Below are positions 16,164 to 59,794 of a stretch of 64,000 nt of DNA, one piece after another. Numbering within the stretch: position 1 is the stretch's first letter; each line of letters opens with the position of its first letter. Position numbers and translations under genes: made by a program. Location: the IMG/VR virus record IMGVR_UViG_3300012683_000008, positions 15,798-79,797 of that record; one strand, written 5' to 3'. Under the pieces are notes generated by a model. The model did not search any database, was not told the DNA's origin, and saw nothing but the letters and a program-made list of their open reading frames with translations. Origin of the DNA: a virus.

Positions 16164-16171
16164 GGGATAAG
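16164..16171 (+). promoter_or_regulatory. GGGATAAG motif, putative phage-RNAP promoter element
   Basis: Intergenic, upstream of 16228; one of seven GG-N-ATAAG sites seen on the plus strand. Confidence 0.55.
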
Positions 16172-16227
16172 GACTTGGGCCGGATAAACCTGCCCATGTT
16201 CAATCCCCATTGGGAGGAGAGTCGAAG

Positions 16228-16746
16228 ATGGAAATCGAGAAGACGGAGACGGTGCATCAGTTGCCTCGGCCGGGTGTCAGTCTGAAGCCGGCAACTGGGG
16301 AGGCACACGTGCCGACCCCCGAAGGTGATGTTCGGGTCGAGGTGAAGGCGGGCGGTTCGACGCACTTCCTGTTCAACGACACGCCGGCCTCCAGGGACTT
16401 CCTGAAGAAGCTCGTCGAGAAGAACGATCTGAAGGCCGAGGCGTCTGCGGCTCAGGGCGAGAGCTACAACCTCACGCTCTGGGGTCGGATCAAGGGCGTG
16501 AGCACTTCGAACGTGACGCCGGCCAGGCTGGTCATCGGTGGCGTCGTCATGTTCGTGGCGTACCAGGGTGCCAAGTGGCTCGGCAAGCGCATCGCCGAGT
16601 ACTTCGGCTGGAACCTCTTCGGCAACATCGTCAGCGAGGAAGAGATGTACGCTGGGGGCAACAAGGACTTCGACGAGCGGAAGGCTCCTCGTCGGCAGGC
16701 TCCTCGTCGGCCCAACGAGCCGACGATGCCGTCTGCTGCGGCCTAG
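16228..16746 (+). CDS. Hypothetical membrane-anchored protein
   Basis: GGAGG RBS; LVIGGVVMFVAYQGAKWLG hydrophobic segment. Confidence 0.7.
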   Translation: MEIEKTETVHQLPRPGVSLKPATGEAHVPTPEGDVRVEVKAGGSTHFLFNDTPASRDFLKKLVEKNDLKAEASAAQGESYNLTLWGRIKGVSTSNVTPARLVIGGVVMFVAYQGAKWLGKRIAEYFGWNLFGNIVSEEEMYAGGNKDFDERKAPRRQAPRRPNEPTMPSAAA

Positions 16747-16753
16747 TGCGGCC

Positions 16754-16797
16754 AGAGAGTACCGGGAGGATGAGCTCGCTCCCGGTATTTCTCTTAG
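16754..16797 (+). terminator. Hairpin terminator followed by TTAG, between convergent genes
   Basis: AGAGAGTACCGGGAG / CTCCCGGTATTTCT stem. Confidence 0.65.
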
Positions 16798-18614
16798 TCC
16801 TCAGACTGGACGCCCGTCTTGGCAGTGGGGTTCAGGATGTCGAAGCGGGGGATCTTCAGCATCGATGCCAGCGTGCAGAGAAGGATGGAGTGGAACGAGT
16901 CGTCCGTCGCATCGGGGGTCTTCTTGTACTGAATCTGCCGCTGCTGCTCGTTGTACTCCGAGAAGATGTTCAGCATGTCCTTCGAGAACGGCTCTTCGAA
17001 GTGGACCCAGTTCGGGAACCGGAAGACGTTGCGACGCTTGATGGCGTTGAAGACGTCGGACATCACTTCGGTGCGGTGAACCAAGAACCGAGAGAGCTCG
17101 GGGTGCCACTGCACCTTCTGCCCAGGCTGAGAGTACTGGTACTTCCGAATGCGTTCGGGACCGAACTTGCGAGTCAGGTGATCGTTGCGGTCGAAGCCAC
17201 CGCCGTAGTCGACGCCGACCACCATGCAGTTCCAGGCCTTGATGATCTGGTCGATCTTGTCGAGCTGCACCTGCGGCTCGGTGTCCTGGTGCTCGAACCG
17301 GTGGATGTAGAAGATGCAGAAGAACCCATTCAGCATGTATGCGCCGAGTGAGAGAACCGTGTACGAACCTTCGCCAGTACCCCAGTCGATGCCAGCGAAG
17401 ACCGGGCTGCTTCCGCCAAGGTTGTGGCGGATCATGTCCAAGGTCGCCTGGTCCATCAGCAACTCGTTGGCACAGTTGTCCATGATGTCCTGGCGAGTGA
17501 GCGGACGAGTGCCAGAGTCGTACGAAAGACCGAGAACTTCGTTGTGGAACTGAGAGGGCGGGTAGGTCGTGTACTTGACCAGAATCTCGTTCCACTCCAG
17601 CCACGGCACCATCACCTGGGGAACTCGGAAGCCTTCGTAGGCCTTGTCTCCGAGACCACCTTCCTGAGGCGGCCGACGAACGGTGGGGTTCATCGACGCC
17701 CAGCAGGACTCTGCACTCATGGCGTGGATACGCTGCTTGCACTTGTCGCAGACGAGACCGTCTGAACCGATGTTGTTCTCGCCGAGGACGTTCCAGTGCC
17801 ACGAGGACGGATCCTTCGGAGTCCCATGGCGCTGACAAGGAACGACCCACTCGTTCTGTGTCGAGAACGCCGACCAATAATGCTCGATGGCGTTGTCGTA
17901 GGACTTCGGCGTCCCCGAGTACATGAAGAGCTTGAATGGAGAGTGAGAGGCGCACTCTTCGATGACGGGGATGTTGTCCGTGATGACGTCTTGGAGCTCG
18001 TCGATCAGGATGAGGTCGGCGGGGATACCACGGGTTCGGTCGGCGTTGTGGTAGGCGTAGCGGAGGGTGATCTGGCTCCGGTTGATGAACTTCTTGAGGA
18101 AGACGTTGTCCGAGAGCTTCGTCGTCGTCCAAGCTCGCAGCGAGTCCGAGGTCTCGATGGGCTCCTTCAGACGGTCCTGCGAGAACACCTTCGTCTGCTG
18201 GTTGGTCGGCGAGACGTAGAGGATGTTGAAGGCGTTGTTGATGCAGGCGTACGCCAGGCTCTTGTTGCCGAGGAAGGTCGACTTCTCGACCTGCCGGCCG
18301 CACTTGAAGAGAGTCCGCTTCGCCGAGGTGTCATACGGGAGCTTCAGGTACTCACGGCCTTCGAAGGAGAAGGGCACGTGCTTCTGGGCCTTCTTGTCTG
18401 GCACCTTGATGGCGAACTGCACGAACTCGGAAGGCATGACGCCCATGAGGCGTGCGTTGCGTCGTAGGATGTCCTCATCCAAGAGGGCTTCATCGAGGTC
18501 CGGCTCGAAGTCCCATTCCTCTTTGAGCTCAAGCCTGCCGCTCTCGGACAAGACGACGTTGGAGCCGAACTTCCGTCGATACTCGTCGCTGGATAGAACG
18601 TTGTCTTCGTACAT
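16794..18614 (-). CDS. Terminase large subunit (lambda GpA-like)
   Basis: Walker A-like CGRQVEKST, Walker B LILIDELQD, coupling motif SGTP, C..H/CDKC zinc segment, nuclease GIDWG ... VDYG ... DDSFHS. Confidence 0.88.
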   Translation of the reverse strand: MYEDNVLSSDEYRRKFGSNVVLSESGRLELKEEWDFEPDLDEALLDEDILRRNARLMGVMPSEFVQFAIKVPDKKAQKHVPFSFEGREYLKLPYDTSAKRTLFKCGRQVEKSTFLGNKSLAYACINNAFNILYVSPTNQQTKVFSQDRLKEPIETSDSLRAWTTTKLSDNVFLKKFINRSQITLRYAYHNADRTRGIPADLILIDELQDVITDNIPVIEECASHSPFKLFMYSGTPKSYDNAIEHYWSAFSTQNEWVVPCQRHGTPKDPSSWHWNVLGENNIGSDGLVCDKCKQRIHAMSAESCWASMNPTVRRPPQEGGLGDKAYEGFRVPQVMVPWLEWNEILVKYTTYPPSQFHNEVLGLSYDSGTRPLTRQDIMDNCANELLMDQATLDMIRHNLGGSSPVFAGIDWGTGEGSYTVLSLGAYMLNGFFCIFYIHRFEHQDTEPQVQLDKIDQIIKAWNCMVVGVDYGGGFDRNDHLTRKFGPERIRKYQYSQPGQKVQWHPELSRFLVHRTEVMSDVFNAIKRRNVFRFPNWVHFEEPFSKDMLNIFSEYNEQQRQIQYKKTPDATDDSFHSILLCTLASMLKIPRFDILNPTAKTGVQSED

Positions 18615-18624
18615 GAATCCCCAT

Positions 18625-18652
18625 ACCGTACTGAAGCGAGAAGGGATTGCAA
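18625..18652 (-). promoter_or_regulatory. sigma70-like promoter for terminase (TTGCAA-16-TACGGT)
   Basis: Hexamers read directly; would give a nearly leaderless mRNA. Confidence 0.35.
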
Positions 18653-18653
18653 G

Positions 18654-18959: not shown

Positions 18960-19603
18960 ACATGTCACCAGTCAGAGCTGGCCTCGATGAGGTCGGCATC
19001 GGTGCTCTCTCGGGCCCGTACATCGCCGCCGTTGCCGTCTTCCGAGAACGAGATCTTCTTCTCCTGCCACATGGAGTGAAGGACTCGAAGAAGACGACTG
19101 AAGAACAGAGAGGCAACCTCTACCTCCCCATCTGTGCAGCAGCCTGGGACGTTGGGCTTGGCTGGGCCTGGCCATGGGAGATCGATCGATACGGCCCCTC
19201 TGAAGCCCTTCAGATGACGTACCGCAGAGCACTTGGAGAACTGAGGGTCCAGTACGACGTCCTGGTGGTCGACGGCAACATCGGGGTCCAGAGTTTCAAG
19301 GACCTATACCGCCCTGGGCGCATCATCGTTGAGCCGAAAGCCGACGTGAACCACCGAGAAGTCTCGGCCGCATCGATCATCGCCAAGTGGGCCCGAGACG
19401 AGATGATGATTTCGTACTCGAAGAGGTTCCCTCAGTACGCCTGGAACGAGAACAAGGGCTACGGCACGAAGTCTCATGAAGACGGTATAAGGAAGTACGG
19501 ACTACTCGTAGACCCTCAAGACACGAGTAGGTACCTTCACCGGAGACACTACTGCAAGAAGTTCATGTATGAGACAAACAACGGTACCACCAGGGTTCGA
19601 TAG
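18956..19603 (+). CDS. rnhB: Ribonuclease HII
   Basis: GLDEVGIGALSGP, GVKDSKK, VVDGN, AASIIAKWARD, NKGYGT. Confidence 0.93.
   Translation: MNMSPVRAGLDEVGIGALSGPYIAAVAVFRERDLLLLPHGVKDSKKTTEEQRGNLYLPICAAAWDVGLGWAWPWEIDRYGPSEALQMTYRRALGELRVQYDVLVVDGNIGVQSFKDLYRPGRIIVEPKADVNHREVSAASIIAKWARDEMMISYSKRFPQYAWNENKGYGTKSHEDGIRKYGLLVDPQDTSRYLHRRHYCKKFMYETNNGTTRVR
19484..19491 (+). promoter_or_regulatory. GGTATAAG motif inside rnhB
   Basis: About 80 nt upstream of ORF 19569; uses an ATA codon that looks uncommon here. Confidence 0.45.
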
Positions 19604-19847
19604 CCAGGTCCCCTGTCTCTGCTGCAACCAGATGGTGCTGATCAGATCCAACGACTGGACCAATTCATCGGCCGGTCTTTGCGTTGGCTGCTACGGCTTC
19701 TTGCCGCTTCAGCTCATCCAGGTGCTGTACATCCTGAGATGCCAGATCGGTGCGATCCACATCCAAGTCGGAGAGGTGCAGGGGAACATGCAGAAGCTCT
19801 TCAACACTGTCAGGGACCTCGAAGAACTGGTCCTCAACACGCCCTGA
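19569..19847 (+). CDS. Small zinc-finger/coiled-coil protein
   Basis: CLCC...CVGC; followed by terminator. Confidence 0.6.
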   Translation: MRQTTVPPGFDSQVPCLCCNQMVLIRSNDWTNSSAGLCVGCYGFLPLQLIQVLYILRCQIGAIHIQVGEVQGNMQKLFNTVRDLEELVLNTP

Positions 19848-19852: not shown

Positions 19853-19884
19853 AAACAGAGAGGACGAACCTCTCTGTTTTTAGC
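19853..19884 (+). terminator. Hairpin terminator followed by TTAGC
   Basis: AAACAGAGAGG-acgaa-CCTCTCTGTTT then TTAGC. Confidence 0.75.
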
Positions 19885-24605: not shown

Positions 24606-25673
24606 CTACTTGGCGAACAGGGACGACGAGGTGATGTCAGGGGTCGTTGGGGAAAGGGGAGGGCCGGTTGGAGCTCCAGGCGACGTTGTCGAGTGCATGT
24701 GGTTGTCGAGCCATGTCAGAAGAGGAGGGGCGAGAGCAACTCCCTTGGTCCCACCGCCGGCGTAGAGCTTTGGCTTGCAGTTCACCTGGCCCGAGCCTTC
24801 GATGTTGACGTCGCCTCCTGATGACTTGATGTCGACACCGTCGCTGCCCTTGATCTCCGCTTTCTTCTTTGAGTCGACGTTGAAGTTGTCTTCCGTCTTG
24901 ATGGTGATGGCCTTCTTTACCGTGAGCTTGAACTCCCCGTCGATCACCAGCTCAGCGTCCTTCTTCGTCGTCAGCTTGAGCTTGCCGTCTTTACCAAGAC
25001 TTAGCTCGATCTGTTTCTCGGCGCCGCTCTTGCCCTTGTCATTGATGAGAAGGGTGAGAATACGGTCGTCTCCATCACCGTGGGAACCGATAAGAAGCTT
25101 GGCAATTGGCTCCTCGTCGTCTGCGAACTCTCGGGCTGCGATCAAGAGAGAGGCTGGTCTCTTCCCGTCAGTCGTGCTCTCTTCTCGTTCCACTTTCCAT
25201 TCGAGGTCACCACCGAGAGTATGGAGACCGTAGTTCTCACAGAAGTCTTTGATGGTGTTGGCGATGGGCAGGAAGATCCTCTGGCACAGAGGCCCAGCCC
25301 CTATCTGTACGACTCCACCTCTCCGCAGAAACAGAAAGTTCTCGTCACGGGTGCCCATGTAAATGTCACCCGGATTGAGGTCTTTCTTCTTCGCCCTCGC
25401 ATCTCCGTCTTCGGACGCTGGCCCCCATGCGAGGATGAAGGGCCGGTTGTGATCTGAGGGCGAACAGATCCAACAGAGGCTGCCCACCTCCGGCATGAAG
25501 TAGATGCCCTCACCGTTCGAGTAGTGCTGGTACGGCGTGGCGAACTTGATGCCGGTCAGAGGCTTCTTCGAGAACTCGGTGGCAGCAGAGACCGTGTAGG
25601 TCGTGATGTCGACGTCCAGGATGATCCCGGACTCGATCCTGGCTGCAATTACCTCAGACTGAGTCGGAGTCAT
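24606..25673 (-). CDS. Baseplate central spike (P2 gpV/Mu gp45-like)
   Basis: N-terminal OB-fold motif FMPEVGSLCW, beta-helix repeats, C-terminal LDNHMH..PGAPTGPP (HxH apex). Confidence 0.75.
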   Translation of the reverse strand: MTPTQSEVIAARIESGIILDVDITTYTVSAATEFSKKPLTGIKFATPYQHYSNGEGIYFMPEVGSLCWICSPSDHNRPFILAWGPASEDGDARAKKKDLNPGDIYMGTRDENFLFLRRGGVVQIGAGPLCQRIFLPIANTIKDFCENYGLHTLGGDLEWKVEREESTTDGKRPASLLIAAREFADDEEPIAKLLIGSHGDGDDRILTLLINDKGKSGAEKQIELSLGKDGKLKLTTKKDAELVIDGEFKLTVKKAITIKTEDNFNVDSKKKAEIKGSDGVDIKSSGGDVNIEGSGQVNCKPKLYAGGGTKGVALAPPLLTWLDNHMHSTTSPGAPTGPPLSPTTPDITSSSLFAK

Positions 25674-28600
25674 CAGTACACGTACTTGGCTTTGCTCGGC
25701 GGAGCCTTACCGAACTCGGCCCCATACGCTACACCAGGAATCGGGTGAGTGCCGTGGAGGTCGGACTTCATGTTCGTTGCCACACCCTCCTGAAGGGTCG
25801 AACGAATCTGCTGGAAGTTGAGCCGGGCCATCCAGTCCTTCGACCGCATGGGCAACTGGTTGACCGACTGGAGCATCGGCCGGTGAACGACCTGCCTGGC
25901 ACCCTTTGCCATCTCCCGGTTTCTCTCTTCGACCTTCGAAAGGGCGATGATGTCTCCAGGCGTGTAGTCCGAGTCTCCTGGCTCTACGACCTTGGTGAGG
26001 TTCGTGAGGGCCCTGACCACCGTCTCGATGTTCCTCCGCCGCACGCCCTCTTTCTTGTAGAGGCCATTGTAGAGCTCGTTCGTGAGGTGGTTCTGCACGT
26101 TGGACATGTCGGTGTACTTCAGGAGGTGCAGAGGGTTGACGTGACCTTCTGAAATCGCATCACCCTTCTTCACCTCGGACCCGATCTGAACCATGAGCGG
26201 CAGCTTCACCGGCACGTAGTGACGCTCGTCACCGATGAAGATGTCGTGACCACCGGCCGCATCCTTCTTGATGTCCGTCACCTTGCCGGTCACCTTCGAG
26301 AGGGTCGCCTCGTTCTTCAACTTCTTTGGCACCTTGAGGAGGTTGTTCAGCTTCTCGAAACGGCTGACCGACATCGCTCCTCTCGTGCTGCCGGCGATGC
26401 CGCCGGAGTGGAATGCGTCCATCGCCATCTGCACAGCCGGTTCACCCATCGACTGGCCAGCGAGGATGCCGACGTTCGTGCCCTCTGAGTGGAGGGTTCC
26501 GTTCTCGTTGAGACCGAAGCACTTGGCGCAGATGCCTTCGCCCTTGTGGCACTTGAGCGGAGAACGAACGACGACCTTGTCGTGCTTCGAGTTCTTCAGC
26601 CGGCTCCAGATCTCTGGAGTGACGAGCGTTCCGGCCTTGATGACCTTGCCGTCTTTCGTCTCGTACGGCTTGGCCAAGAAGCGATCGTGGATGTCCTCGT
26701 GTTCGAGCGGCATCAGAACGCCGTGGGTAGTACCGCAGTCCTCAGACGTGATGAGGTAGTTCATCGTCGAGTTGAGGATCTCCTTCGACATCGCTCCAGG
26801 CTCGCTGGTGCCCTGAGCACGCTGGAGGGTTCCCTTGCGAGCGCCGTGCTGTGCCAGCCAGTAGTCGCCGATGTCCAGACCTTCGGAGTAGCTCCTGGTC
26901 ACAGGCGTTGGGATGGTCCGGTTGGTCGCATCCTGCATCAACATCGGAGCAGCGATCATCTGTCGGAGCTGCTCTGGCTTTCCACGAGCCCCGGAGTAGA
27001 CCATCGTGGCAAGACGGTTCGACGTACCAGCGAGCTGGTGCCGAGCTGAGGCATCGAGCTCTTCGGTCGCCTTCGAGTAGATACTGACGAGCTTCGCATC
27101 GAGCTCGTCCTTGCCCTTGACGGTCTTCTTGGCCTGATCCGCTTCCTTGTGGGCGACGGCCAGGATGCGGTCTCGACCTTCTAGGGGCTTCAGGTCCTTC
27201 AAGCCGATGGAGAACGCCGTCTGGTAGGAGTGCTCGTTGCCGAGATCCTTCAGGGCGTCGATGGCCTGAGCGAAGTGCTCTGAATGGTTCTTGGCGAGAT
27301 CCGTCGCCATGTGGCTCATCGTCTTCTTGTTGATCTCGTAGCTCGGATCGTGAAGAACACCCTCACGCATATGCATGGTCTTCGGCAGCCACGCAGCGAT
27401 GCGCATGCGGCCGAGAGTGGTGTCCTTGCCGTTGAGCTTGATGATGTCCGTGTGCTCGATCTCGTGCTTGTCAGCAGCACGGTCGACTCCGGCACCGTCA
27501 GTGAAGCTCTTGGTCGTCTTCTTGCCCCACTTCGACATCAGGTGGAGACCGAGCATTGCTTCCTGGCTCGGCGTGTACATGACGCTGCCCGTGGTCGGGG
27601 AGAAGAGGTTCCTCGACGGGAACATCTTCTTGGCCTCGTCCACTGCCTCACGAGACAGAGGCACAGTACCGGCCATAGTGTCACCGTCGAAGTCGGCGTT
27701 GAAACCACCGGTGACGAGCGGGTGAATCTGAATGGCCTTGCCTTCGATGAGCTTCGGCTGGAACGCCATCACCGAGAACTTGTGGAGTGCAGGGTCACGC
27801 TTCAGGAGGATGGGGCGGTCCTTCACCACCTCTTCGAGTGCCTTGAAGGCGAAGTCGGTCCCGTCCTTCATCTCCTTGCGAGCGACGAGAGGATCCATGC
27901 CCCAGCGTCCGAGCTGGGCGACCACGAAGGGCTTGTAGAGCTCCATCGCTGCGTTCTTCGGCAGGCCGACCTGATCGATGTGCAGGTTCGGCTCGGGGAT
28001 GATGGTGGAACGGATCGAGAGGTTCTGCCGCCTCTTGACGAGCTTCGACTGGAAGTAGGCGTCCTTTGGCTGGTCGCCTTCTCCAGAGCCACCGAGAGTC
28101 TCCAGGATGCCCTTGAGCTTCCTCCGACCGCTCGACTCGTCGTAGACGGGTCGGTAGTCGCCGACTGCCTGGAGTGCTTTGTAGGCGTCCCAGAGAGCTG
28201 ACTGGAGCGGCTTCCGATCGCTCTCCGTGAAGACCGCTGGGTCCCAGTCCTTGAGAGCCTGGTTGACGATGGCGAAGTTCTTGTAGTGCTGAACGATGGG
28301 CGGAGTGTTCACGTCCCCACGGTCTGTCGGCGTCATCGGCCGGAAGACCGGCGGGATGATCGGCAGGTAGTGGGTCATGTACGCCTCAGCGGGCGACATG
28401 CCGTTCTCTTTCAGAGCGGTGAGGAACTTCACCTTCTTGTGGAGACGATCGAGCTGAGCTCCCTTCACCGTCTTGAGCCGCTCCTTGGCCCCACGAAGTT
28501 CGGCATCGACGTCAAGCTTCTGCAATGCGGACTTGATGGCCGCACCACCGGTCTTGCCGTTGAGGTCCTGCTTGCCGGCCATGATGGCGTCGATGTCTTC

Positions 28601-31600
28601 GAGCTTCAGGTGCAGCAAGGTCGGAACCGGACCTGGTCGGTTGCCGGCGCCCACGAAGATGGGAGACGGCATCGGCTCCGCCATGCGGATGAAGGACCAC
28701 TTCTCGCCCTCGATCCCGCCCGTGGCGTGAGGGTCGTAGAGACCACCCTTCTCTTCCTTCAGGTCCTTCGCACGGAGGGTGTACTTGCCCTTGGTGATTT
28801 CGTTCTTGCCGTTGTTGGCGAGACGAAGAGTGTCCTTGTCCGTGAGAGGCAAGAGACGGATCTCCGTCCCCTCCTTCTGCACGTTGATGCCTGAGCCTTT
28901 GAGCAGCGCCTCGAACTTCTTGTACGAGAACGGGACCTGAGGAGGAGGCGGCTCGAACCCCTGCTGGATGCGGACCCAGAAAGAGTCGTCCTGCTTGTCG
29001 GACTTGTACGTCGCCATCTCTCGAACGTTGTGCCGAGCTCCGTGTCCCAGCATCGAGTAGAGCTCAAGCTGGCCGAAGCCCTGCCCACCGTGGGCACCGC
29101 CCTTCACCGGCTGACGATCGAGGCTGTAGGTCAACGGCTTGTTGTCGAGTGTCGTGCCACCGCCACGAACGCTGAGCTTCTTCTCGACCTGGTGACGCAG
29201 CTTCAACAGGTACTGCGGCCCGACCAGGACCGAGCCCATCACCCTCGACGGGTCCTTCGGGTCGAAGACGTGCTCTTCATCGTTGATGCCGTGGTGCTTG
29301 AGCTCATCAACAACCTGAGAACGGTAGTCGTGGTTCGGTCCTGAGAAGTTGTTGACGACATACGGCTTGCCCGTCTTCTCGGCGATCTTTCCGGCGGCGG
29401 TCTCCAGAAGTTGTCCGACGTTGATGCGTGTAGGAACTCCTGAAGGGTTGAGAAGAACTTCGAGGGGCTTGTGCTCACCTTTGGGATCCTTCGTGAACGG
29501 CATCTCGTGATCGGGAATGATCTGCGTGATGATGCCCTTGTTTCCGTGACGACCAGAGAGCTTGTCTCCGACCACCATCTGCTCTTCGGTCCTGACGTAG
29601 ACCTTCACGCCCTTGCCGTTCGGCTGATGAACGACTCGAACCACCTCGCCCATGTGGTCCTCGTCCCAGACGAGGCTCTTGTCCTTGTAGGCGAAGAACT
29701 TGTTGTAGCGAGAGCCGAGGGCCGCCAAGGCGCTGCCGCCCTTGGTGTTGGTGTTCTTGGACAGGGCAGTGATCAGCACTGAACCAGGCTTCACCTTCGT
29801 GCCGACCTTGATGACACCGTGCTCGTCGAGAGAGTCGAACTCCTCTTTCGTCATCTCCGTCGCCCGACGGGAGGCGAAGGCGTGCCAGGACTTCTTGTTG
29901 ACCGTATCGTTGTCCGGATCGATCTCCAGGTTCTTCCGGTACAGGTGCTCGGAGGTCAGCTTCTTGGCTGCCGTCTCTGAGATGACGATGCCGTCTTCGA
30001 AGTTGTAGCCCTTGTACGGCATGTACCCGACCCGGAGGTTCGTTCCGATCGCGAGCTGGCCGTCTCTGGTGAAGTTCGTATCGGCCAGGAGCTGGCCTTG
30101 CTTCACCGAGTCTCCGACCTTCACCTGGGGAGTCGAGTGCATCATCCCCTTGTCGTCGTTGAGCGGGAAGTGGTTGTAGAGGTGGACTTCGTGCTTGCTC
30201 TTCCCCTCGCCGATGACGATGAAGTTCGGGGTCACGCTGGTGACCTTGCCGGAGACTGGAGAGTTGATGGAGCTGAACGAGCCGATGACCTTCTCGAAGG
30301 TGCTGGCTCCTTCCGTCTTTGATTGCACCAGTGGCGCCTCACGATGCTTCAGTGAGATGGCCTGCTCCATCTGCTTGTCGGCCATCGACACACGGTTTCC
30401 TTGGTCGGTTGGTAGGAAGGGAATGAGGTTCGAGGTGTAGTCGAAGAGACCCTTGGCCGAGGGAAGGACGTACGTCGCCTCCTTGAACGGCCGGGTCTCG
30501 ATGGCCCCGCCTGGAAGCTTCATCTTAACGTTGGCGGAGATGGGTACTGGCTTGCCCTTCTCCCACTTCACCTGGTCAGGAAGCACAGCAGACGCCTGGT
30601 GAAACGCTGGCACCCCCACGTACTCGATCTTGCCGGAGGCGATGGAGAAGGCGGGTGTCTCCAGCTCCTTGCCGTTCTTCCGAACGTTGGCTGCCAGGTA
30701 GAGCGTGATGCCTGTGCGCTCTGACTCCGGGGTGTGCATCGGGTCGAGGAACCCGAAGTGGCTCGGGTTGATGACCTGCATCTGCTCGGTGATGGCGTTC
30801 TTGTTCTTGATACCGCCGAGGTCAGAGAAGAGCGTCGTCTTCCGGTGACCCGCCATCATCTGGAGCGGGTTGGTCTGGTCGTACCGCTCGATGATCTTGG
30901 TGCCGCCGCTGAGGAAGAAGGCGTTGATGGGCTTCTTGAACAGGTCAGGAGAGACGATCTCCGTGATGGTCTTCTTGTGGTCGACCGTCTGACGCAGCTT
31001 CACCTTGATGTTCTTGGCGTTCCTCGCCAGCATCTCGGGAACGAAGTCCTCGACAGAGACGACCTCCTTGAAGGCGAGGCTGTCACGGTCATCCGGCTCC
31101 TGGGTGCCACGAGAGACGCCCAGAATCTTGTTGGCTGCCAACTTGAGCACTTCGCCGTTCACCTGAGTGAAGGGCTTGCCCAGCGTCACCTTCGTGGTGT
31201 CAGGAAGCAGGGCCGTGCTGTCGAAGAAGTGGTGAACGTAGGCGTGGTGACCGGCGTCGTCCTTCGGTACCTCAGCGTCCTCTTCGTTCGTCCTCTTGAA
31301 GAAGTCCTGAAGAGCCTTCTCGTTCTTCTTGTCGAACTTGTTGGAGTGGAAGATCTCCGCTCCCCACTGGTGCTCCAGCTCGTCGTCCGAGACGCCCATC
31401 GACTTCATGATGGGGTAGAGCGGAATGTGAGCTGAGCCGTACTTGAACGAGAACTTCTTCGTGCGAGGGTTCAGGTGGATGGAGAAGTTGCTGCCCAGCT
31501 TGCGAGCCAAGTTGAACTCAGATTCGAGCTCGCCGTTCTCCTGCACTCGGGCGTAGACGCCTGACTTGAGGCGGAAGAGGTGGTCGACCTGGTACTCGTT

Positions 31601-31912
31601 GCCGCTGACGATGAAGCCGTAGCGGCTGGTGAGCTTCGGAATGGTGGCCAGTGTGGCCTTCTTCTTGTCGATGACCTGCCCTGTCGTCTTGTCGATGAGA
31701 GACAGGTTGGCGACGACCGGCACGCCCCAGGTGCGCTCGTTGTCCTTGGCGTCGGCCTGGGACTTGATGTCACCGATGTCGAGCTTGTCGTCGACTCCGA
31801 TGCTGTCGAGAACGATCTTCTGTCGCTTGCCCTCGAACGGGAAGTACGCACCGATGGAGCTGACGACGTTCTTCTTCAGCGTCTCGAAGCTTGCTTCTGG
31901 GGTGATGTCCAC
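25673..31912 (-). CDS. rpoBC: Single-chain DNA-directed RNA polymerase, fused beta-beta' subunits (2079 aa)
   Basis: beta motifs DQTNPL, HTPE, YNFEDGIVISE, GDKLSGRHGNKG, LLNPSGVPTRINVGQ, GGQGFGQLE; beta' motifs LPIIPPVFRP, KRDPALH, NADFDGD (27680-27700), SGARG, GARKG, DCGT, RSPLKC..ICAKC, GEPAVQMAMDAFHSGG. Confidence 0.95.
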   Translation of the reverse strand: MDITPEASFETLKKNVVSSIGAYFPFEGKRQKIVLDSIGVDDKLDIGDIKSQADAKDNERTWGVPVVANLSLIDKTTGQVIDKKKATLATIPKLTSRYGFIVSGNEYQVDHLFRLKSGVYARVQENGELESEFNLARKLGSNFSIHLNPRTKKFSFKYGSAHIPLYPIMKSMGVSDDELEHQWGAEIFHSNKFDKKNEKALQDFFKRTNEEDAEVPKDDAGHHAYVHHFFDSTALLPDTTKVTLGKPFTQVNGEVLKLAANKILGVSRGTQEPDDRDSLAFKEVVSVEDFVPEMLARNAKNIKVKLRQTVDHKKTITEIVSPDLFKKPINAFFLSGGTKIIERYDQTNPLQMMAGHRKTTLFSDLGGIKNKNAITEQMQVINPSHFGFLDPMHTPESERTGITLYLAANVRKNGKELETPAFSIASGKIEYVGVPAFHQASAVLPDQVKWEKGKPVPISANVKMKLPGGAIETRPFKEATYVLPSAKGLFDYTSNLIPFLPTDQGNRVSMADKQMEQAISLKHREAPLVQSKTEGASTFEKVIGSFSSINSPVSGKVTSVTPNFIVIGEGKSKHEVHLYNHFPLNDDKGMMHSTPQVKVGDSVKQGQLLADTNFTRDGQLAIGTNLRVGYMPYKGYNFEDGIVISETAAKKLTSEHLYRKNLEIDPDNDTVNKKSWHAFASRRATEMTKEEFDSLDEHGVIKVGTKVKPGSVLITALSKNTNTKGGSALAALGSRYNKFFAYKDKSLVWDEDHMGEVVRVVHQPNGKGVKVYVRTEEQMVVGDKLSGRHGNKGIITQIIPDHEMPFTKDPKGEHKPLEVLLNPSGVPTRINVGQLLETAAGKIAEKTGKPYVVNNFSGPNHDYRSQVVDELKHHGINDEEHVFDPKDPSRVMGSVLVGPQYLLKLRHQVEKKLSVRGGGTTLDNKPLTYSLDRQPVKGGAHGGQGFGQLELYSMLGHGARHNVREMATYKSDKQDDSFWVRIQQGFEPPPPQVPFSYKKFEALLKGSGINVQKEGTEIRLLPLTDKDTLRLANNGKNEITKGKYTLRAKDLKEEKGGLYDPHATGGIEGEKWSFIRMAEPMPSPIFVGAGNRPGPVPTLLHLKLEDIDAIMAGKQDLNGKTGGAAIKSALQKLDVDAELRGAKERLKTVKGAQLDRLHKKVKFLTALKENGMSPAEAYMTHYLPIIPPVFRPMTPTDRGDVNTPPIVQHYKNFAIVNQALKDWDPAVFTESDRKPLQSALWDAYKALQAVGDYRPVYDESSGRRKLKGILETLGGSGEGDQPKDAYFQSKLVKRRQNLSIRSTIIPEPNLHIDQVGLPKNAAMELYKPFVVAQLGRWGMDPLVARKEMKDGTDFAFKALEEVVKDRPILLKRDPALHKFSVMAFQPKLIEGKAIQIHPLVTGGFNADFDGDTMAGTVPLSREAVDEAKKMFPSRNLFSPTTGSVMYTPSQEAMLGLHLMSKWGKKTTKSFTDGAGVDRAADKHEIEHTDIIKLNGKDTTLGRMRIAAWLPKTMHMREGVLHDPSYEINKKTMSHMATDLAKNHSEHFAQAIDALKDLGNEHSYQTAFSIGLKDLKPLEGRDRILAVAHKEADQAKKTVKGKDELDAKLVSIYSKATEELDASARHQLAGTSNRLATMVYSGARGKPEQLRQMIAAPMLMQDATNRTIPTPVTRSYSEGLDIGDYWLAQHGARKGTLQRAQGTSEPGAMSKEILNSTMNYLITSEDCGTTHGVLMPLEHEDIHDRFLAKPYETKDGKVIKAGTLVTPEIWSRLKNSKHDKVVVRSPLKCHKGEGICAKCFGLNENGTLHSEGTNVGILAGQSMGEPAVQMAMDAFHSGGIAGSTRGAMSVSRFEKLNNLLKVPKKLKNEATLSKVTGKVTDIKKDAAGGHDIFIGDERHYVPVKLPLMVQIGSEVKKGDAISEGHVNPLHLLKYTDMSNVQNHLTNELYNGLYKKEGVRRRNIETVVRALTNLTKVVEPGDSDYTPGDIIALSKVEERNREMAKGARQVVHRPMLQSVNQLPMRSKDWMARLNFQQIRSTLQEGVATNMKSDLHGTHPIPGVAYGAEFGKAPPSKAKYVY

Positions 31913-31963
31913 GTTGTGCCCTTACCCTGCGCCAGGTGAGGAAGTCACGATCGACCAGACCCT

Positions 31964-31982
31964 ACCCTTGCGCAGCAAGGGT
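31964..31982. repeat. Perfect inverted repeat ACCCTTGC-gca-GCAAGGGT between divergent transcription units
   Basis: Seen directly; possible operator or hairpin. Confidence 0.5.
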
Positions 31983-32027
31983 CCTCAGGCCCGTCGGCAG
32001 GGTACATGAAAACAGACTCTTGCCCAA

Positions 32028-32035
32028 GGTATAAG
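32028..32035 (+). promoter_or_regulatory. GGTATAAG motif
   Basis: 40 nt upstream of the first gene of the 32-34.5 kb island. Confidence 0.55.
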
Positions 32036-32074
32036 GTCAGAGTCGTAGAGTAACAGCTCTGCGACGGAGGGATC

Positions 32075-32227
32075 ATGGGACCAGACGACAAAGATGAAGA
32101 GAAGCCGAAGTCGCAGTCCGAGATGTTCGAAAAGGAACGCAACGATGCGTTCTTCAGTCATCTCGATGGGGAGAAGAAAGAAGACGAAGAGGAAGAGGAG
32201 AAGAAGCCGGCAGAGGAACCGAAGTGA
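32075..32227 (+). CDS. Small acidic protein (50 aa)
   Basis: GGAGG RBS; MGPDDKDEEK...NDAFFSHLDG...EEPK; not in ORF track. Confidence 0.6.
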   Translation: MGPDDKDEEKPKSQSEMFEKERNDAFFSHLDGEKKEDEEEEEKKPAEEPK

Positions 32228-32325
32228 AGATCTTCCTGCTGGGAATACTGATCCGAGTCCTCCAGTACGTCGTGTGGACTCTCCACGTCGAGTACCAACG
32301 TCTCTCAGGGATGACCCTGAACTGA
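32224..32325 (+). CDS. Small hydrophobic peptide (33 aa)
   Basis: GTGA overlap with upstream gene; MKIFLLGILIRVLQYVVWTL. Confidence 0.4.
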   Translation: MKIFLLGILIRVLQYVVWTLHVEYQRLSGMTLN

Positions 32326-32332
32326 GGTCCGA

Positions 32333-32815
32333 ATGCTCGCCTCTTGTCCCATTCTCTTCTTGAGTACGGGTGGCCAGTTAGACAAACGAGGCAGGCCTCT
32401 TTTTACCTTCAACGGAACTGAGATGGTGCCTCTGGGAAATCCAGAGGCACGTCTCAACTGCGATCGAGCGTACGACTGCGGAGTCTGCACCCTGCTCCAC
32501 AGATGGCTCGAAGCCAGAACCGCTGAGGGGTACTCCTTTGGGTGGGAGTGCGACCGCTGCCTCAAGTACACCCTGGAGCTCGACAGGACGAACAACATCG
32601 AGCGCATCGTCACCGGCTACTACCAGGCCGGGAGAAAGTTCGACATCGATCCAGGGGATGAGGCCTTTGATCCCGACAGGCCTGGCCTCGATGGATGCAC
32701 CCACGTTCATGAGTTCGAAGACCCCGAAGTGAACAAACAAGCGGGCGAGAGATGCTGCTGGGAGACTTCCTTCCTGCAACTCGTCCTGCGCAGAAGGAGA
32801 GCGGATGGCCGATGA
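32333..32815 (+). CDS. Cys-rich hypothetical protein
   Basis: 160 aa; several CxxC. Confidence 0.65.
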   Translation: MLASCPILFLSTGGQLDKRGRPLFTFNGTEMVPLGNPEARLNCDRAYDCGVCTLLHRWLEARTAEGYSFGWECDRCLKYTLELDRTNNIERIVTGYYQAGRKFDIDPGDEAFDPDRPGLDGCTHVHEFEDPEVNKQAGERCCWETSFLQLVLRRRRADGR

Positions 32816-33218
32816 AATTCCCCCATACCCGTTCTTCCAACAACCCGACTACGTCCAAGCATTCGAACCGGCTCAGTACCAGCCGGTGCCAGTGCCTCAA
32901 GCTCATGTGGAGTCGCAGAAGAACCTGACCTGCGACTACTGCAAAGAGCCCATCGTCGAAGGCGATGAGGCTATCAATGGGCTCTACGGAACGGCCAGCA
33001 AGGGTAGGAAGAGCGGACGCCTGATGGTGATGCCCGACAAGAACATTCCAGCGGGCGAGTTCAACATTCACATCATCTGCGTCTCAGGGTTCGTCGAAGA
33101 GAACCTGCCCGAGGCTGCGGATGAGATTCGCCAGATGGAGTACGAGCCAGGAGACGAAGAAGCCGAGATCTTCTGCGCCAACTGTGACGCTAAGATCACC
33201 GATGACAACGTCGGCTGA
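32805..33218 (+). CDS. Zinc-finger hypothetical protein
   Basis: CDYC..HIIC..CANC. Confidence 0.65.
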   Translation: MADEIPPYPFFQQPDYVQAFEPAQYQPVPVPQAHVESQKNLTCDYCKEPIVEGDEAINGLYGTASKGRKSGRLMVMPDKNIPAGEFNIHIICVSGFVEENLPEAADEIRQMEYEPGDEEAEIFCANCDAKITDDNVG

Positions 33219-33432
33219 GCCGGTCTGGAAAGAAGACGTCGAGAAGGAAGTGGAGTACCTCGGAGAGGGATCTCGGACCCTCGCTGAGTTCTACCATCGA
33301 CTCAAAGCCCATCAGGCACCTGCCGCACTGCTCGATGAACTAGCAGCAGCGTGGCAGGGCCTTGACGGCTCTCGACGTCGTCTCGAAGCACTGCTGGCGT
33401 GCTTCCCACCAGAACCAAGGACCACAAGATGA
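33202..33432 (+). CDS. Hypothetical protein
   Basis: Start MTTSAEP within overlap chain. Confidence 0.55.
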   Translation: MTTSAEPVWKEDVEKEVEYLGEGSRTLAEFYHRLKAHQAPAALLDELAAAWQGLDGSRRRLEALLACFPPEPRTTR

Positions 33433-40821: not shown

Positions 40822-40851
40822 AGTGTAGGTCCTTCCCCTCGGAACGGTCAA
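40822..40851 (-). promoter_or_regulatory. sigma70-like promoter of portal operon (TTGACC-18-TACACT)
   Basis: Near-consensus hexamers about 33 nt upstream of the first gene. Confidence 0.5.
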
Positions 40852-40884
40852 CGAATTCCCCCGGACAAGAACGAATGCTTTCAC

Positions 40885-40892
40885 GGGATAAG
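40885..40892 (+). promoter_or_regulatory. GGGATAAG motif
   Basis: 37 nt upstream of the first gene of the replication block. Confidence 0.55.
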
Positions 40893-40928
40893 AGGCAAGC
40901 GGGAATCATTAAACTTGAAGGAGGTGGA

Positions 40929-41552: not shown

Positions 41553-43025
41553 ATGAAGCTGACCCTGCCGTTCAAAGACCCAACGAGAGCGTACGTCTCG
41601 AACCAGCTCTGGCTCCCCAAGGAAGGAAACGTCCTTGGTGGGGTCAGAGTCGGTCCGATTCAAAAGGCTCTTGAGTTCACTGTGGGTCGAGCGGGGCAAC
41701 TCGATGTTCTGAAGATGTGGGAAGAGTCTAGGGGTCACGTCATCTGCCCCCGAGAGTTCCTTCCGACGTCGGAGTACGTGAAGTACAAGTTCCCCTTCGT
41801 CGATCTTAGGCCTCGGTTCCAGGACCGCTACTTCCAAGACCTCGTAGAGCCGAGGAACGAAGAGCAGGTCAAAGCTTGGGAGGCGCTGAGTCGCAACGAC
41901 AACGGCATCCTCAACTTGGGCTGCGGCAAGGGGAAGACGAAGCTCTCTCTGAAGAAGATTGCTCAGAAGGGAACGCCCACTCTGATCATCGTTCCGGATG
42001 GCGGGATGCTCGACCAATGGCGGCAGTCGATTCAAGGAAGCGACAGAACCCCACAGGGTCTGCGCTTCGACGGAGGCATCGGTCTCGTCCACGAGAGTCA
42101 CTTCGACTGGAGAGGCCGTCCTCTGGTGTTGGCGAACGTTTACAACTTAGCCCTCAAGATCCGAGATGGAAGAGTTCCTGAGGAGTTCTTCAGGTACTTC
42201 GGACTTGTCGTCTACGACGAGGTCCACCAGATGGGGGCGCCAGTCTTCAGTCAGTGCGCCTGGCCCTTCTATGGAGACCGCATCGGCCTCACCGCAACGG
42301 TGCAGAGAGAAGACGGGCTCGACCCCATCTACCGCTACCACATCGGAGAGCCCTTCTACTCCGACCTCGTGCAGCCCCTCATTCCTCTGATCTACTTCCA
42401 GAAGACACCAGTCAGGCTCGACATCGCTCCGACCATCAGGAACGGTTCCGTTCACCTCGGGCTGTTGCGAACGTCACTGGGCAGGGACCTGACCGGGAAC
42501 ACGTATCGCTACTACGCCATCAAGGAAGCGCTGGACCAGGGCAGGAAGATCCTCTGCCTCTCGCACTCGAAGGACCAGCTCTACCTGATGCACTCGCTCT
42601 TCCCAGGCTCCGGACTCCTCGTTCAGGAGACACCGACGAACCGGCGGCTGGAGATTCTACGGAACAGCCAGGTCTGCTTCGCCATCTCACGGCTCGGGGA
42701 CAAGGGCGTAGATGATGACCGCTTGGACACGTTGTTCTGGCTCACCCCGTTCAAGTCTCTCATCTCCTTGCAGCAATCCATCGGTCGAGTACAAAGGTCC
42801 CTCGAAGGCAAGAGGCATCCTGTGGTGGTCATCTTCGAGGACAACCTCGTCTCGACGCTGAAGAACCTGTGCCTGAGACTGAAGCAGACGTTCAGGCAGT
42901 GGCAGTTCAACTTCGATGTACTTCAACCGGGACGGTTCCAGAGGGAGCTGCCCCCAGAACTGAGAGCAATCTATGAGCAACGATTCCAGCAACTCCCCCA
43001 ACGCGGCGACGCAGACGACGACTGA
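41553..43025 (+). CDS. Superfamily II DNA helicase (UvsW/XPB-like)
   Basis: LGCGKGKT, YDEVH, GLTAT, GVD, QSIGRVQR. Confidence 0.88.
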   Translation: MKLTLPFKDPTRAYVSNQLWLPKEGNVLGGVRVGPIQKALEFTVGRAGQLDVLKMWEESRGHVICPREFLPTSEYVKYKFPFVDLRPRFQDRYFQDLVEPRNEEQVKAWEALSRNDNGILNLGCGKGKTKLSLKKIAQKGTPTLIIVPDGGMLDQWRQSIQGSDRTPQGLRFDGGIGLVHESHFDWRGRPLVLANVYNLALKIRDGRVPEEFFRYFGLVVYDEVHQMGAPVFSQCAWPFYGDRIGLTATVQREDGLDPIYRYHIGEPFYSDLVQPLIPLIYFQKTPVRLDIAPTIRNGSVHLGLLRTSLGRDLTGNTYRYYAIKEALDQGRKILCLSHSKDQLYLMHSLFPGSGLLVQETPTNRRLEILRNSQVCFAISRLGDKGVDDDRLDTLFWLTPFKSLISLQQSIGRVQRSLEGKRHPVVVIFEDNLVSTLKNLCLRLKQTFRQWQFNFDVLQPGRFQRELPPELRAIYEQRFQQLPQRGDADDD

Positions 43026-46230: not shown

Positions 46231-46334
46231 CGCCGCTCACCTCCTGCAAGAGGGGAGACTACTCGGCGACCAACTTGCTCCACTTGTCCGGGATAAGGGA
46301 CCCAGCGGTGGAACTTTAGGTCGCCGAGTCGGCG
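46231..46334 (+). ncRNA. Candidate structured RNA/DNA element upstream of DnaB, with GGGATAAG in the apical loop
   Basis: Nested stems CGCCG/CGGCG, ACTCGGCGACC/GGTCGCCGAGT, TCCAC/GTGGA, GTCC/GGAC; TTGACA at 46201. Confidence 0.4.
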
Positions 46335-57600: not shown

Positions 57601-58628
57601 TGCCACAACCGATCGTTGAACGAGGCACCTTGATGAAGGTGTTGGACCACGGCTACGTCCGCATCATCAACTTCATGGGCAACGACGAGGAGATCGTCGA
57701 AGCCGCACGGATGAGCAACGACAAGGGTTTCATCTCCTGGAACCACTACGTCCGCTGCAAGAACTGCACGAAAGTGCTCTACGCACCACCGGATGGGCAT
57801 GTCGTCGTGCCGAGCGACGACTGCGTGACTCCAGTCACCAGGCGTTCGACAGGAGAGGTGGTCGGCAGTGCGACCGGCAAGCATGACTGGGAGCACTTCC
57901 CACACGGCGACCTCGGCCTCCTCGACAACCTGTGGAGGAAGAAGCACGCCACCCCGTTCGAGATGGGGGAACTCGTCATCGAAGTGCAGGCGCCCATCAT
58001 GGTGTTCCGTGAGTGGCACCGGCACAGGACTCAGTCGTACAACGAGTTCTCGGCCCGCTACTCGGTGATGCCGAACATCCACTACATCCCGGAGAGGGAG
58101 CGCATCCAGAAGCAGAGCACGGCCAACAAGCAGGGCAGTGCCGAGCAGATGGATGACGACACCTCGTCTCAGGTTCGTGCCGAGCTTGAGAGGCAGCAGC
58201 AAGAGATCTACGACTACTACGAAGGTTGGTGCGAGTCGGGAGTCGCAAGAGAAGTGGCTCGCATCAACACTCCAGTCTCTCGCTACTCGAAGATGAGGGC
58301 GAAGGGGAACATCAGGAACTGGTTCCAGTTCTTGAACCTCCGCATGCGGCCCGATGCTCAGTACGAGATCCGCCAGTACGCCAACGAGGTCGGCAAGATT
58401 CTCTCCTGGCTCTGGCCGAAAGCGTACAGCTTCTTCGAAGAGTACGACCTCTACGGAGCTCACTTCAGCAGGACAGAGCTCAAAGCTCTTCGCACCATCC
58501 TCATGAAGGCCAACGTCGTTGAGCAAGTTGAGCTCATGAAAGTCTTCGAAGAACATGGTTTGAAGGGAACCAAGCTCAAAGAGTTCCAGGAAAAGCTGCG
58601 AGAGGGCGGCGACAAGATCCTGAGCTGA
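57600..58628 (+). CDS. thyX: FAD-dependent thymidylate synthase
   Basis: VLDHGYV, AARMS, HATPFE, REWHRHRTQSYNEFSARYS, REVAR, FLNLR, AQYEIR. Confidence 0.93.
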   Translation: MPQPIVERGTLMKVLDHGYVRIINFMGNDEEIVEAARMSNDKGFISWNHYVRCKNCTKVLYAPPDGHVVVPSDDCVTPVTRRSTGEVVGSATGKHDWEHFPHGDLGLLDNLWRKKHATPFEMGELVIEVQAPIMVFREWHRHRTQSYNEFSARYSVMPNIHYIPERERIQKQSTANKQGSAEQMDDDTSSQVRAELERQQQEIYDYYEGWCESGVAREVARINTPVSRYSKMRAKGNIRNWFQFLNLRMRPDAQYEIRQYANEVGKILSWLWPKAYSFFEEYDLYGAHFSRTELKALRTILMKANVVEQVELMKVFEEHGLKGTKLKEFQEKLREGGDKILS

Positions 58629-58631
58629 CTC

Positions 58632-58639
58632 GGCATAAG
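58632..58639 (+). promoter_or_regulatory. GGCATAAG motif
   Basis: In the 30-nt gap before ORF 58659. Confidence 0.5.
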
Positions 58640-58658
58640 AGGGAGGAGGAGCACAAAC

Positions 58659-59348
58659 ATGCCTTTGGTCACTGATGAGCTGAAGAGATTGTTCACCCAG
58701 TTCGACGCCGTCATTCAAGAGGCGGCAAAGGTCATGAAGACCACCTGCAAGGCGGGGTGCAACAACTGCTGCAAGCTGTTCGCTACTTGCACACTGCCCG
58801 AAGGCATCCTCATTGCCGAAGAGCTGTTCAAGAAGCCTGATTGGCAGGCGCTGGTACCTGATCTGGTGAAGGCCTCCAAGGAGTTCTGCTTCGAAGGCGT
58901 CAACTCCATGACCTACCTCAGCAAGAAGCTTCCGTGCGTCTTCTTGAAGGAAGGGCTGTGCAGCATCTACGAGGTGCGGCCTTCGGTCTGCCGGTACTAC
59001 TACTCGGTGCAGGATCCGAAGCTCTGCGATCCCGACAACCACGATCGAAAGGTAGCGACCGTGGATGCCACGCAGATCATAGACGACCTGAACATGTTCG
59101 CGATCCACGTCTCAGTGGGGCTCCAGAACCAGAACATCTGCGCACCCATTCCCCTGATGGTCCTCTACGCGATGTTCCTCGTCGCCGGCAGCAAAGGGGC
59201 GAAGAGGTTCATTCGAGAGGCGACACGCGGACTTCCTATGCCGGAGGACTACCTCAGAGCTTTCCCCTCCGTCATCGAAGAGCCGAGAGAGCAGCGGCTC
59301 AAGCTCACGGAAGAAGAGCTCAAGAAGCTCCAGGAGCAGCAGGGATGA
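58659..59348 (+). CDS. YkgJ/UPF0153-family cysteine-cluster protein
   Basis: CKAGCNNCC...CVFL..GLCSIYEVRPSVCRYY. Confidence 0.85.
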   Translation: MPLVTDELKRLFTQFDAVIQEAAKVMKTTCKAGCNNCCKLFATCTLPEGILIAEELFKKPDWQALVPDLVKASKEFCFEGVNSMTYLSKKLPCVFLKEGLCSIYEVRPSVCRYYYSVQDPKLCDPDNHDRKVATVDATQIIDDLNMFAIHVSVGLQNQNICAPIPLMVLYAMFLVAGSKGAKRFIREATRGLPMPEDYLRAFPSVIEEPREQRLKLTEEELKKLQEQQG

Positions 59349-59794
59349 GGAACATCCTTCAAGTCACGTACCCTGAGCTGCCGCCGACCAGCAACCGTCT
59401 CTACTTTCGAGGGACGATGCTGACGGCGGTGGCCAAGAGGTACGGGGAGTCATTCGCCATGTTCATGGCGCAGAAGCATGGTGCAGACATCCTGGAGATG
59501 GATCGAGAGTCCATCTACGCCCTGCACCTTCGCTTCTTCTTCAAGAAACTGGAGAACGCAGGCTGGAACGACCCCAAATGTCCCCCTTCAAGACGACCCA
59601 AATCTCGGTATAAGAAGATAGACCTCAGTAACAGAATTAAGTTGCTGGAGGACTGCGTCCGAGATGCTCTCGACATCGACGACTCACAGACGTTCGCTGC
59701 CTCCCAAGAGAAGCACCAGTGCGAAGAGGGGGAGAGCGAGCGGGTAGAGATCATCATCCAACGAGTCGAACCGGGCCTCTTTGGCCTCGGTTGA
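59345..59794 (+). CDS. rusA: RusA-like Holliday junction resolvase
   Basis: PPTSN, DLSNRIKLLEDCV...IDDSQ. Confidence 0.8.
   Translation: MRNILQVTYPELPPTSNRLYFRGTMLTAVAKRYGESFAMFMAQKHGADILEMDRESIYALHLRFFFKKLENAGWNDPKCPPSRRPKSRYKKIDLSNRIKLLEDCVRDALDIDDSQTFAASQEKHQCEEGESERVEIIIQRVEPGLFGLG
59607..59614 (+). promoter_or_regulatory. GGTATAAG motif inside rusA
   Basis: Sits in a locally AT-rich patch with atypical codons (AAA TCT CGG TAT AAG AAG ATA). Confidence 0.45.

Follow-up and report, generated by a model that had tools for sequence, protein, structure and literature searches.

We report that GGNATAAG, a motif repeated ahead of genes along one strand of a large phage genome, is on the evidence of sequence comparison the -10-like half of a two-box promoter class that is private to a lineage of ~180-210-kb phages. 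The stretch of DNA analysed, referred to here as the window, comprises 64,000 nucleotides (nt), bases 15798-79797 of the 79.8-kb IMG/VR viral contig IMGVR_UViG_3300012683_000008 (CheckV completeness 43%), and the motif was first noticed in a sequence-only reading of it. We consider it probable that the element serves as cognate promoter for a sigma70-family factor that the lineage itself encodes and that acts in complex with the phage RNA polymerase (RNAP), an enzyme in which beta and beta' form a single chain.

Within the window GGNATAAG occurs seven times on the + strand and not once on the - strand, and all seven sites lie exactly at the coordinates first reported for them (Table 1). In 100 dinucleotide-preserving shuffles of the sequence the expectation for both strands together was 1.57 (standard deviation 1.27) and no shuffle reached seven. 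Over the whole contig the motif is found 8 times forward and 0 times reverse, while the reversed word, used as a control, occurs once on each strand; the early impression that the - strand lacks the motif was confirmed. The same holds for the remarks that a purine follows all seven sites, that C precedes six of them, and that five are intergenic and two (19484 and 59607) within genes, although across relatives conservation extends to the following purine (52 of 55 aligned sites) but not to the preceding C. The seven sites score 15.7-23.9 bits with a weight matrix built solely from the four other genomes described below, the window genome being left out; no further window site reaches 9 bits, and the best score on the reverse strand of the contig is 7.6 bits.

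The motif was then compared across two sets of relatives, namely eighteen loci encoding RNAPs with 53-66% identity to that of the window, and four genomes (G001-G004) assembled from pieces, three of which are complete at 197-209 kb and the fourth represented by its first 180 kb. In these four genomes the strand counts of GGNATAAG are 25:0, 15:0, 12:1 and 17:1 (69:2 in total), in favour of the strand opposite the RNAP gene, with 0-6 per strand for the reversed control word. Taking the contig and the four genomes together, which have a G+C content (GC) of 52-63% and only 5-12% of their length between genes, 77 of the 79 sites are on one strand (binomial p = 1e-20) and 65 of these 77 are intergenic (p = 1e-47), with a median distance of 54 nt to the next start codon on the same strand (range 5 to over 700 nt). 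Neither the two sites on the other strand nor one outlier on the motif strand has a CAA box (see below), and all three lie within genes. In nearly all of the eighteen loci a site directed away from the RNAP gene also lies 135-190 bp upstream of it, matching candidate promoter 3 of the window (Table 1) in position and orientation. Since the + strand of the window holds genes for replication, repair and nucleotide metabolism (Table 1), the motif heads non-structural genes only. Two GAGATAAG variants are present at contig bases 1798 and 3366, outside the window, where they score 9-11 bits and lie 38 and 53 nt before + genes, and a further variant, GTCATAAG, is enriched upstream of genes in two relatives; the second G of the core therefore tolerates change.

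Alignment of 55 distinct motif sites from the eighteen loci and the contig, anchored on the GGNATAAG pattern, revealed a further conserved box, c/a-A-A-r, which lies 15 nt upstream of GG and occupies -19 to -16 relative to the first G; its two A residues, at -18 and -17, are shared by 46 and 48 of the 55 sites. Other conserved positions are G at -26 (38 sites), R at +8 (52), T at +12 (34) and G at +14 (35), so that a T-R-G is conserved at +12 to +14, the one support for a start 6-8 nt beyond the -10 box. The window sites follow this arrangement, with the upstream box in register at five of seven, one nt closer at 59607 and partial at 19484. From the alignment the full signal would be (g-N6-)cAAr, 15 nt and GGnATAAGr, followed by a predicted purine start about 6 nt further on. 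When nATAAG is taken as -12 to -7, GG falls at -14/-13 and cAAr at -33 to -30, the spacer is 17 bp and the conserved purine is at +1. The sequence-only reading had proposed a short non-sigma70 promoter for early and replication genes, read by the fused RNAP. It was right that the signal is promoter-like, strand-specific and placed before replication and accessory genes and not virion genes, but the signal is neither short nor non-sigma70: its two boxes stand at the spacing canonical for the sigma70 family, and the relatives encode a sigma70-family protein.

Compared with the bacterial sigma70 promoter, TTGACA-N17-TGnTATAAT, the phage signal shares the two boxes with a fixed spacer of 17 +/- 1 bp, G at -14, ATAA at -11 to -8 (with A at -11 invariant) and a purine about 6-7 nt downstream. 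It differs in having cAAr in place of TTGACA and in always having G in place of T at -7 (79 of 79 sites, by pattern), although G at -7 was recovered independently in the top enriched k-mer and at the orthologous sites upstream of the RNAP gene. Nor is the signal an extended -10 element of the TGn type, since G at -14 is present without a T at -15, where the base is unconserved (A 14, C 19, G 12 and T 10 of 55).

These features bear on the proposal that the fused RNAP reads a short promoter directly and independently of sigma, as do the T7, N4 and crAss-like phage polymerases. The 8-nt core is indeed the most information-rich part of the signal, and the RNAPs of phiKZ and AR9 are known to use short single-element promoters with no sigma homologue (PMC13282480). 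However, a second box stands at a fixed distance of 15 nt in 46-48 of the 55 sites, in every lineage examined the motif is accompanied by a sigma70-family gene, and the RNAP is of the bacterial type with clamp helices that are predicted to bind the lineage sigma, so we regard this explanation as highly improbable. The phiKZ and AR9 enzymes are two-barrel RNAPs of cellular type whose transcription is partly host-independent and one version of which is packaged in virions (PMC7598289, PMC9209446, PMC13282480). They consist of 4-5 polypeptides, have no sigma homologue by sequence and use single-element promoters, with AR9 requiring uracil in the template strand, whereas the window lineage has a one-chain core of 2079 amino acids (aa), a recognisable sigma70-family factor in the relatives and a two-box promoter. 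Promoters of the T7 and N4 type are contiguous elements of ~20 bp or hairpins and are read by a single-subunit (palm-fold) RNAP, whereas in the window lineage no RNAP other than the beta/beta' enzyme was found and the two boxes of the motif stand apart.

The possibility that GGNATAAG is not a promoter at all, and instead is the site of a regulator or replication protein, or an RNA processing or stability signal at the 5' ends of + messages, was also considered. The motif often follows a terminator-like element consisting of a hairpin and TTAGCC, and so would mark the boundaries of units in any case. Against this, the two boxes have sigma-type spacing, a purine is found at the expected start, orientation with respect to the downstream gene is strict, the variable distance to the start codon would suit initiation better, and the sites are not clustered as origin repeats would be; we therefore give this possibility very little credence.

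Table 1. Candidate ATAAG promoters, opposite-strand promoters and principal genes of the window
Feature	Coordinates	Strand	Description	Matrix score (bits)	Setting
Candidate promoter 1	16143..16178	+	CAAT box, 15 nt, GGGATAAG (16164-16171); predicted start near 16178	23.9	Gene 16228-16746 (+, 172 aa) downstream
Candidate promoter 2	19463..19498	+	Partial upstream box, GGTATAAG (19484-19491)	17.7	Within 3' part of RNase HII gene (18962-19603); precedes gene 19632-19847
Candidate promoter 3	32007..32042	+	AAAA box, GGTATAAG (32028-32035)	15.7	Divergent gap adjoining RNAP gene; heads + block 32075-34450
Candidate promoter 4	40864..40899	+	CAAGA box, GGGATAAG (40885-40892)	21.4	Heads long replication block: gene 40929-41519, then SF2 helicase 41553-43025
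Candidate promoter 5	46269..46304	+	CAAC box, GGGATAAG (46290-46297)	16.1	Ahead of DnaB-like helicase, primase, DNA polymerase A
Candidate promoter 6	58611..58646	+	CAAGA box, GGCATAAG (58632-58639)	23.2	
Candidate promoter 7	59586..59621	+	CAAGA box, spacer one nt shorter, GGTATAAG (59607-59614)	20.6	Embedded in RusA-like gene (59345-59794); precedes gene 59805-60275
sigma70-like promoter of RNAP gene	31999..32027	-	TTGGGC, 17-nt spacer ending in TG, TACCCT		Back to back with promoter 3
sigma70-like promoter of virion-block gene 39368-40786	40822..40851	-	TTGACC-N18-TACACT		Back to back with promoter 4
Single-chain beta-beta' RNAP	25673..31912	-	2079 aa, cellular (multisubunit) type; Pfam RNA_pol_Rpb2_6 at 2.5e-63 plus Rpb1 domains 2-5		
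Major head protein	7225-8346	-	Virion gene		
Terminase	16794-18614	-	Virion gene		
Baseplate protein	24606-25673	-	Virion gene		
Portal-like protein	35163-37187	-	Virion gene		
+ strand genes		+	SF2 helicase, DnaB, primase, DNA polymerase A, UDG, RecA-like, PD-(D/E)XK nuclease, dNMP kinase, ThyX, RusA, RNase HII, plus small genes without assigned function		

Individual window promoters have counterparts in the relatives. Orthologous sites are found for promoter 4 in G001, G003 and G004 and for promoter 5 before the DnaB gene of G001, and the site embedded in the RusA-like gene (promoter 7) is present in the orthologous gene of G001, G003 and G004. At promoter 6 the predicted start would leave the ribosome-binding site GAGGAG whole ahead of the ATG at 58659.

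A six-frame Pfam search of the five genomes with Sigma70_r2 and Sigma70_r4 found no sigma factor and only weak helix-turn-helix matches, and the sigma gene of the lineage was found only by means of gp10 of the Salmonella phage Arash. A homologue of Arash gp10 is present in all four relatives (phmmer E = 8e-23 to 4.5e-10), one of which matches Pfam Sigma70_r3 at 27.1 bits (cut-off 25.3), and a profile of the four matches the structures of RpoS, SigA, SigB and FliA with E = 3e-6 or weaker across regions 2 to 4, RpoS and SigA scoring above FliA. In the relatives the gene lies on the RNAP strand, well inside an operon of closely spaced genes whose order and sizes match the gp4-gp14 virion block of Arash. 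The truncated first open reading frame of the window contig (contig bases 1-726, outside the window; 241 aa), which has a weak N-terminal Sigma70_r2 match and a C-terminal helix-turn-helix, was dropped as a candidate specificity factor since it has no homologue in the four relatives, and it may be a strain-specific regulator.

Binding of sigma region 2 to the clamp helices of beta' is the textbook interface of a holoenzyme. Complex prediction for the lineage sigma and residues 1010-1460 of the phage beta' gave an ipSAE of 0.69, compared with 0.00 for the best of 3 controls. Among solved complexes 58 of 80 attain that mark, and among mismatched pairs 2 of 110; runs share at least 57% of contacts and the partner pLDDT is at least 67. 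The predicted interface is formed by the beta' clamp helices (1204-1248) and sigma residues 92-107. The prediction shows a resemblance to known holoenzymes and does not show a preference of this sigma for the phage core over a host core.

Megablast with the RNAP gene gave no match among cultured phages, and tblastn with the window RNAP picked out Arash (OQ632216) and three Vibrio phages (D69, D148 and D181), whose RNAPs are about 31% identical to it. All four resemble the window phage in encoding a homologous RNAP and a homologous sigma (25-32% identity), and in Arash and D69 an ATAAG core lies opposite the RNAP, sigma and virion genes and is almost always intergenic. Specifically, in Arash (53% GC) GGTATAAG is found once forward and 30 times reverse, with all 30 reverse sites intergenic and 28 of them preceding a gene on the same strand, while the forward strand, opposite the motif, holds the genes for RNAP, sigma and terminase. 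The extended consensus in Arash is tGGTATAAGtaaagTGTA, with a weak tCCAAtAA box upstream. In D69 (45% GC), which has the same sigma homologue, the exact GGNATAAG shows no enrichment and the variant GTTATAAG is used instead (1 forward, 18 reverse), with a tcAA box at the same spacing. There are also differences between these phages and that of the window: beta and beta' are separate genes in Arash and one chain in the window phage, and the Arash/D69 group has more AT-rich genomes, a discriminator one nt longer and a TAAAATA(T) motif on the virion strand. The latter is a second strand-specific motif, with no evident -35 box, before genes of the virion/RNAP strand (TAAAATAT in D69, 17 forward and 2 reverse; cTAAAATA in Arash); it recalls T4 late promoters and a counterpart was not seen in the high-GC family. 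Three other phages with a bacterial-type RNAP, Rhizobium phage RHph_TM21B, Yersinia phage YerA41 and Cobetia phage Carin-5, gave no tblastn match to the lineage sigma and show no enrichment or strand bias for GGNATAAG, variants of which were not searched.

Conservation of the motif thus follows phage lineage and not host. That the ATAAG core is found together with the sigma family in phages of different hosts and base compositions favours reading by the phage sigma over a host promoter. It might be supposed that the signal belongs to a host promoter class, read by host RNAP with a housekeeping variant or with an alternative sigma of group 3, for example sigma-28 (FliA). The core does match TATAAT at 5 of 6 positions when N is T, and the layout loosely recalls the sigma-28 consensus TAAA-N15-GCCGATAA, which likewise has an A-rich -35 box and about 15 nt to an 8-nt downstream box containing ATAA; the phage sigma also has a region 3, like group-3 sigmas, and FliA is among its profile matches. 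However, sigma70 depends critically on T at -7, where the phage sites invariably have G, and in Arash GTATAAG is strongly biased (4 forward, 36 reverse) whereas GTATAAT, the better match to host sigma70, is not (2 forward, 4 reverse). The CGA core of sigma-28 promoters is absent, the base before ATAAG being C in 25, G in 19, T in 8 and A in 3 of 55 sites and the two bases ahead of it GG and not CC, while the -35 box is c/a-A-A-r, the register is off by one nt and the final G is invariant. Moreover, the same core occurs in phages of Salmonella, Vibrio and unidentified hosts with genomes of 45-63% GC, and the opposite strand has separate, ordinary TTGACc-N17/18-TAnnnT promoters. A host promoter class is therefore improbable.

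It is less clear which core enzyme the phage sigma serves. Mass spectrometry of Arash virions found RNAP beta to be the most-detected protein, with beta' and the sigma gp10 also present (PMC10585845). We favour a phage-only holoenzyme because the sigma co-occurs with the RNAP and both are present in Arash virions, and a role for the fused RNAP as core enzyme is plausible on the basis of this co-occurrence, the predicted clamp-helix interface and the Arash proteomics (PMC10585845). We also infer the reader protein, the start site, the timing of expression and the packaging of the enzyme in virions. In the alternative, the phage sigma would bind host core RNAP and the phage beta-beta' would serve other promoters or another phase of infection. 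The two-box geometry would suit any sigma70-type holoenzyme, no alpha or omega subunit was found, and self-assembly of the fused enzyme is only putative. On the other hand, the sigma homologue was detected only in RNAP-encoding phages (the four relatives, Arash and the D69 group), apart from two weak hits in Synechococcus phages that were not examined, and the model seats sigma on the clamp helices of the phage beta', which counts for little as this is the textbook pair. On balance we consider use of the host core unlikely.

A number of points weigh against the phage holoenzyme as reader, or against the promoter class as we describe it. Sigma70-family factors of phages, such as SPO1 gp28 and T4 gp55, normally redirect the host core. 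Contact between sigma and beta' is to be expected for any sigma and any bacterial-type beta', and the predicted complex may only mirror likeness to solved holoenzymes. The sigma gene is absent from the window contig when searched with the profile of the four sigmas. This absence may be explained by the contig being incomplete, as it is syntenic only with about 25-108 kb of G001, whose sigma operon is at 146-158 kb, and synteny would thus put the gene beyond the contig end; on this evidence we infer that the gene is present in this genome. Within the pattern-anchored alignment G, G and the final G of the core are invariant by construction, so that their other support is the k-mer enrichment and the alignment of orthologous sites upstream of the RNAP gene. 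Sites ahead of orthologous genes keep their position only in part, a pattern that promoter turnover would be expected to produce. Two + genes, that at 15468 (an HTH_17/MerR-like DNA-binding protein) and that at 18654, begin + blocks without an ATAAG promoter, as had been remarked at the outset, there being no site of at least 9 bits by the family matrix in the gaps before them (15405-15467 and 18615-18653). Finally, most other genes on the - (RNAP) strand could not be assigned to a promoter class.

We hypothesise that the reader is the homologue of Arash gp10 acting with the phage beta-beta' and with no alpha or omega subunit. On one strand, the ATAAG promoters would drive the genes for replication, recombination and nucleotide metabolism as well as small accessory genes; the RNAP, sigma and virion genes lie on the other strand, where at least two operon heads appear to have ordinary sigma70-like promoters. 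These opposite-strand promoters, together with the Arash proteomics, suggest a tentative further step, which we put forward as a possibility rather than as our expectation. A complete holoenzyme of beta-beta' and sigma could be packaged in the virion and injected with the DNA, so that the ATAAG promoters would fire first and independently of the host, with the virion, RNAP and sigma genes transcribed later by the host enzyme. Such a programme would be an N4-like division of labour, but with a cellular-type RNAP and a true sigma factor.

The components of this system can be related to others already described. SPO1 gp28 and gp33/34 and T4 gp55 are phage sigmas that give phage genes their own consensus and separate temporal classes. 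These sigmas reprogram the host core, whereas the window lineage also supplies a core of bacterial type, and virions of Arash contain the sigma as well as the core; compared with a bacterial holoenzyme, the presumed phage core would be a single beta-beta' chain with no alpha or omega. Large metagenomic tailed phages (Caudovirales) with beta and beta' homologous to cellular RNAP have been described as the mReC lineage (Weinheimer & Aylward 2020, PMC7481178). The window phage has Rpb2 and Rpb1 domains together with terminase, portal, major head and baseplate genes, and so its group resembles mReC by gene content. Promoters, sigma factors and beta-beta' fusion in mReC phages are not mentioned in that paper (PMC7481178), nor are promoters mentioned in the paper on Arash (PMC10585845). 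A literature search on GGTATAAG returned only primers and unrelated sequences, and a search on a fused phage beta-beta' with its promoter returned no description of this system and no paper on this promoter.

According to a 2026 review, phage multisubunit RNAPs are without a sigma homologue and phage sigmas occur in phages without their own polymerase (PMC13282480). Contrary to this statement, the lineage studied here combines a phage RNAP, a sigma factor and a clear, conserved promoter consensus. The consensus provides a direct handle for annotating transcription units in widespread large uncultured phages, for which Arash is a cultured member growing on Salmonella. The invariant G at -7 would be a simple candidate means for a sigma70-type factor to separate phage from host promoters, and a compact orthogonal transcription system could be built from a single-chain core, one sigma and an 8-nt core signal.

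The RNAP is present in one copy per genome in the relatives and its catalytic motif NADFDGD is conserved, while a six-frame Pfam search of the five genomes detected no alpha or omega domain. The sigma70-like promoter of the RNAP gene (Table 1) is conserved as TTGACc-N15/16-TG-TAyyyT in 12 relatives, and that of the virion-block gene is conserved at the orthologous spot in G001-G004. TACACT is also the enriched word on this strand of the high-GC family. Another word, TTCCCAC, was rejected as a promoter class of the RNAP strand as it is common within genes on both strands. Between the sigma70-like promoter and the start codon of the RNAP gene the leader contains a conserved hairpin (31958-31991, -), GGCyCGArGA-CCUC...GAGG-UAGrGCC, with compensatory changes at 4 of 7 predicted pairs across 13 phages; it may be a cis-regulatory element for RNAP synthesis.

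The + transcription units end in a GC-rich hairpin and a short T run followed by TTAGCY, as seen in the window at 19880, 34483, 50404 and 62560 (+). Across the five genomes the motif strand has 36 intergenic copies of TTAGCC and the opposite strand 9, and in several relatives, as well as in Vibrio phage D69 (as TTTTTAG), this terminator-like element lies directly upstream of the next ATAAG promoter.

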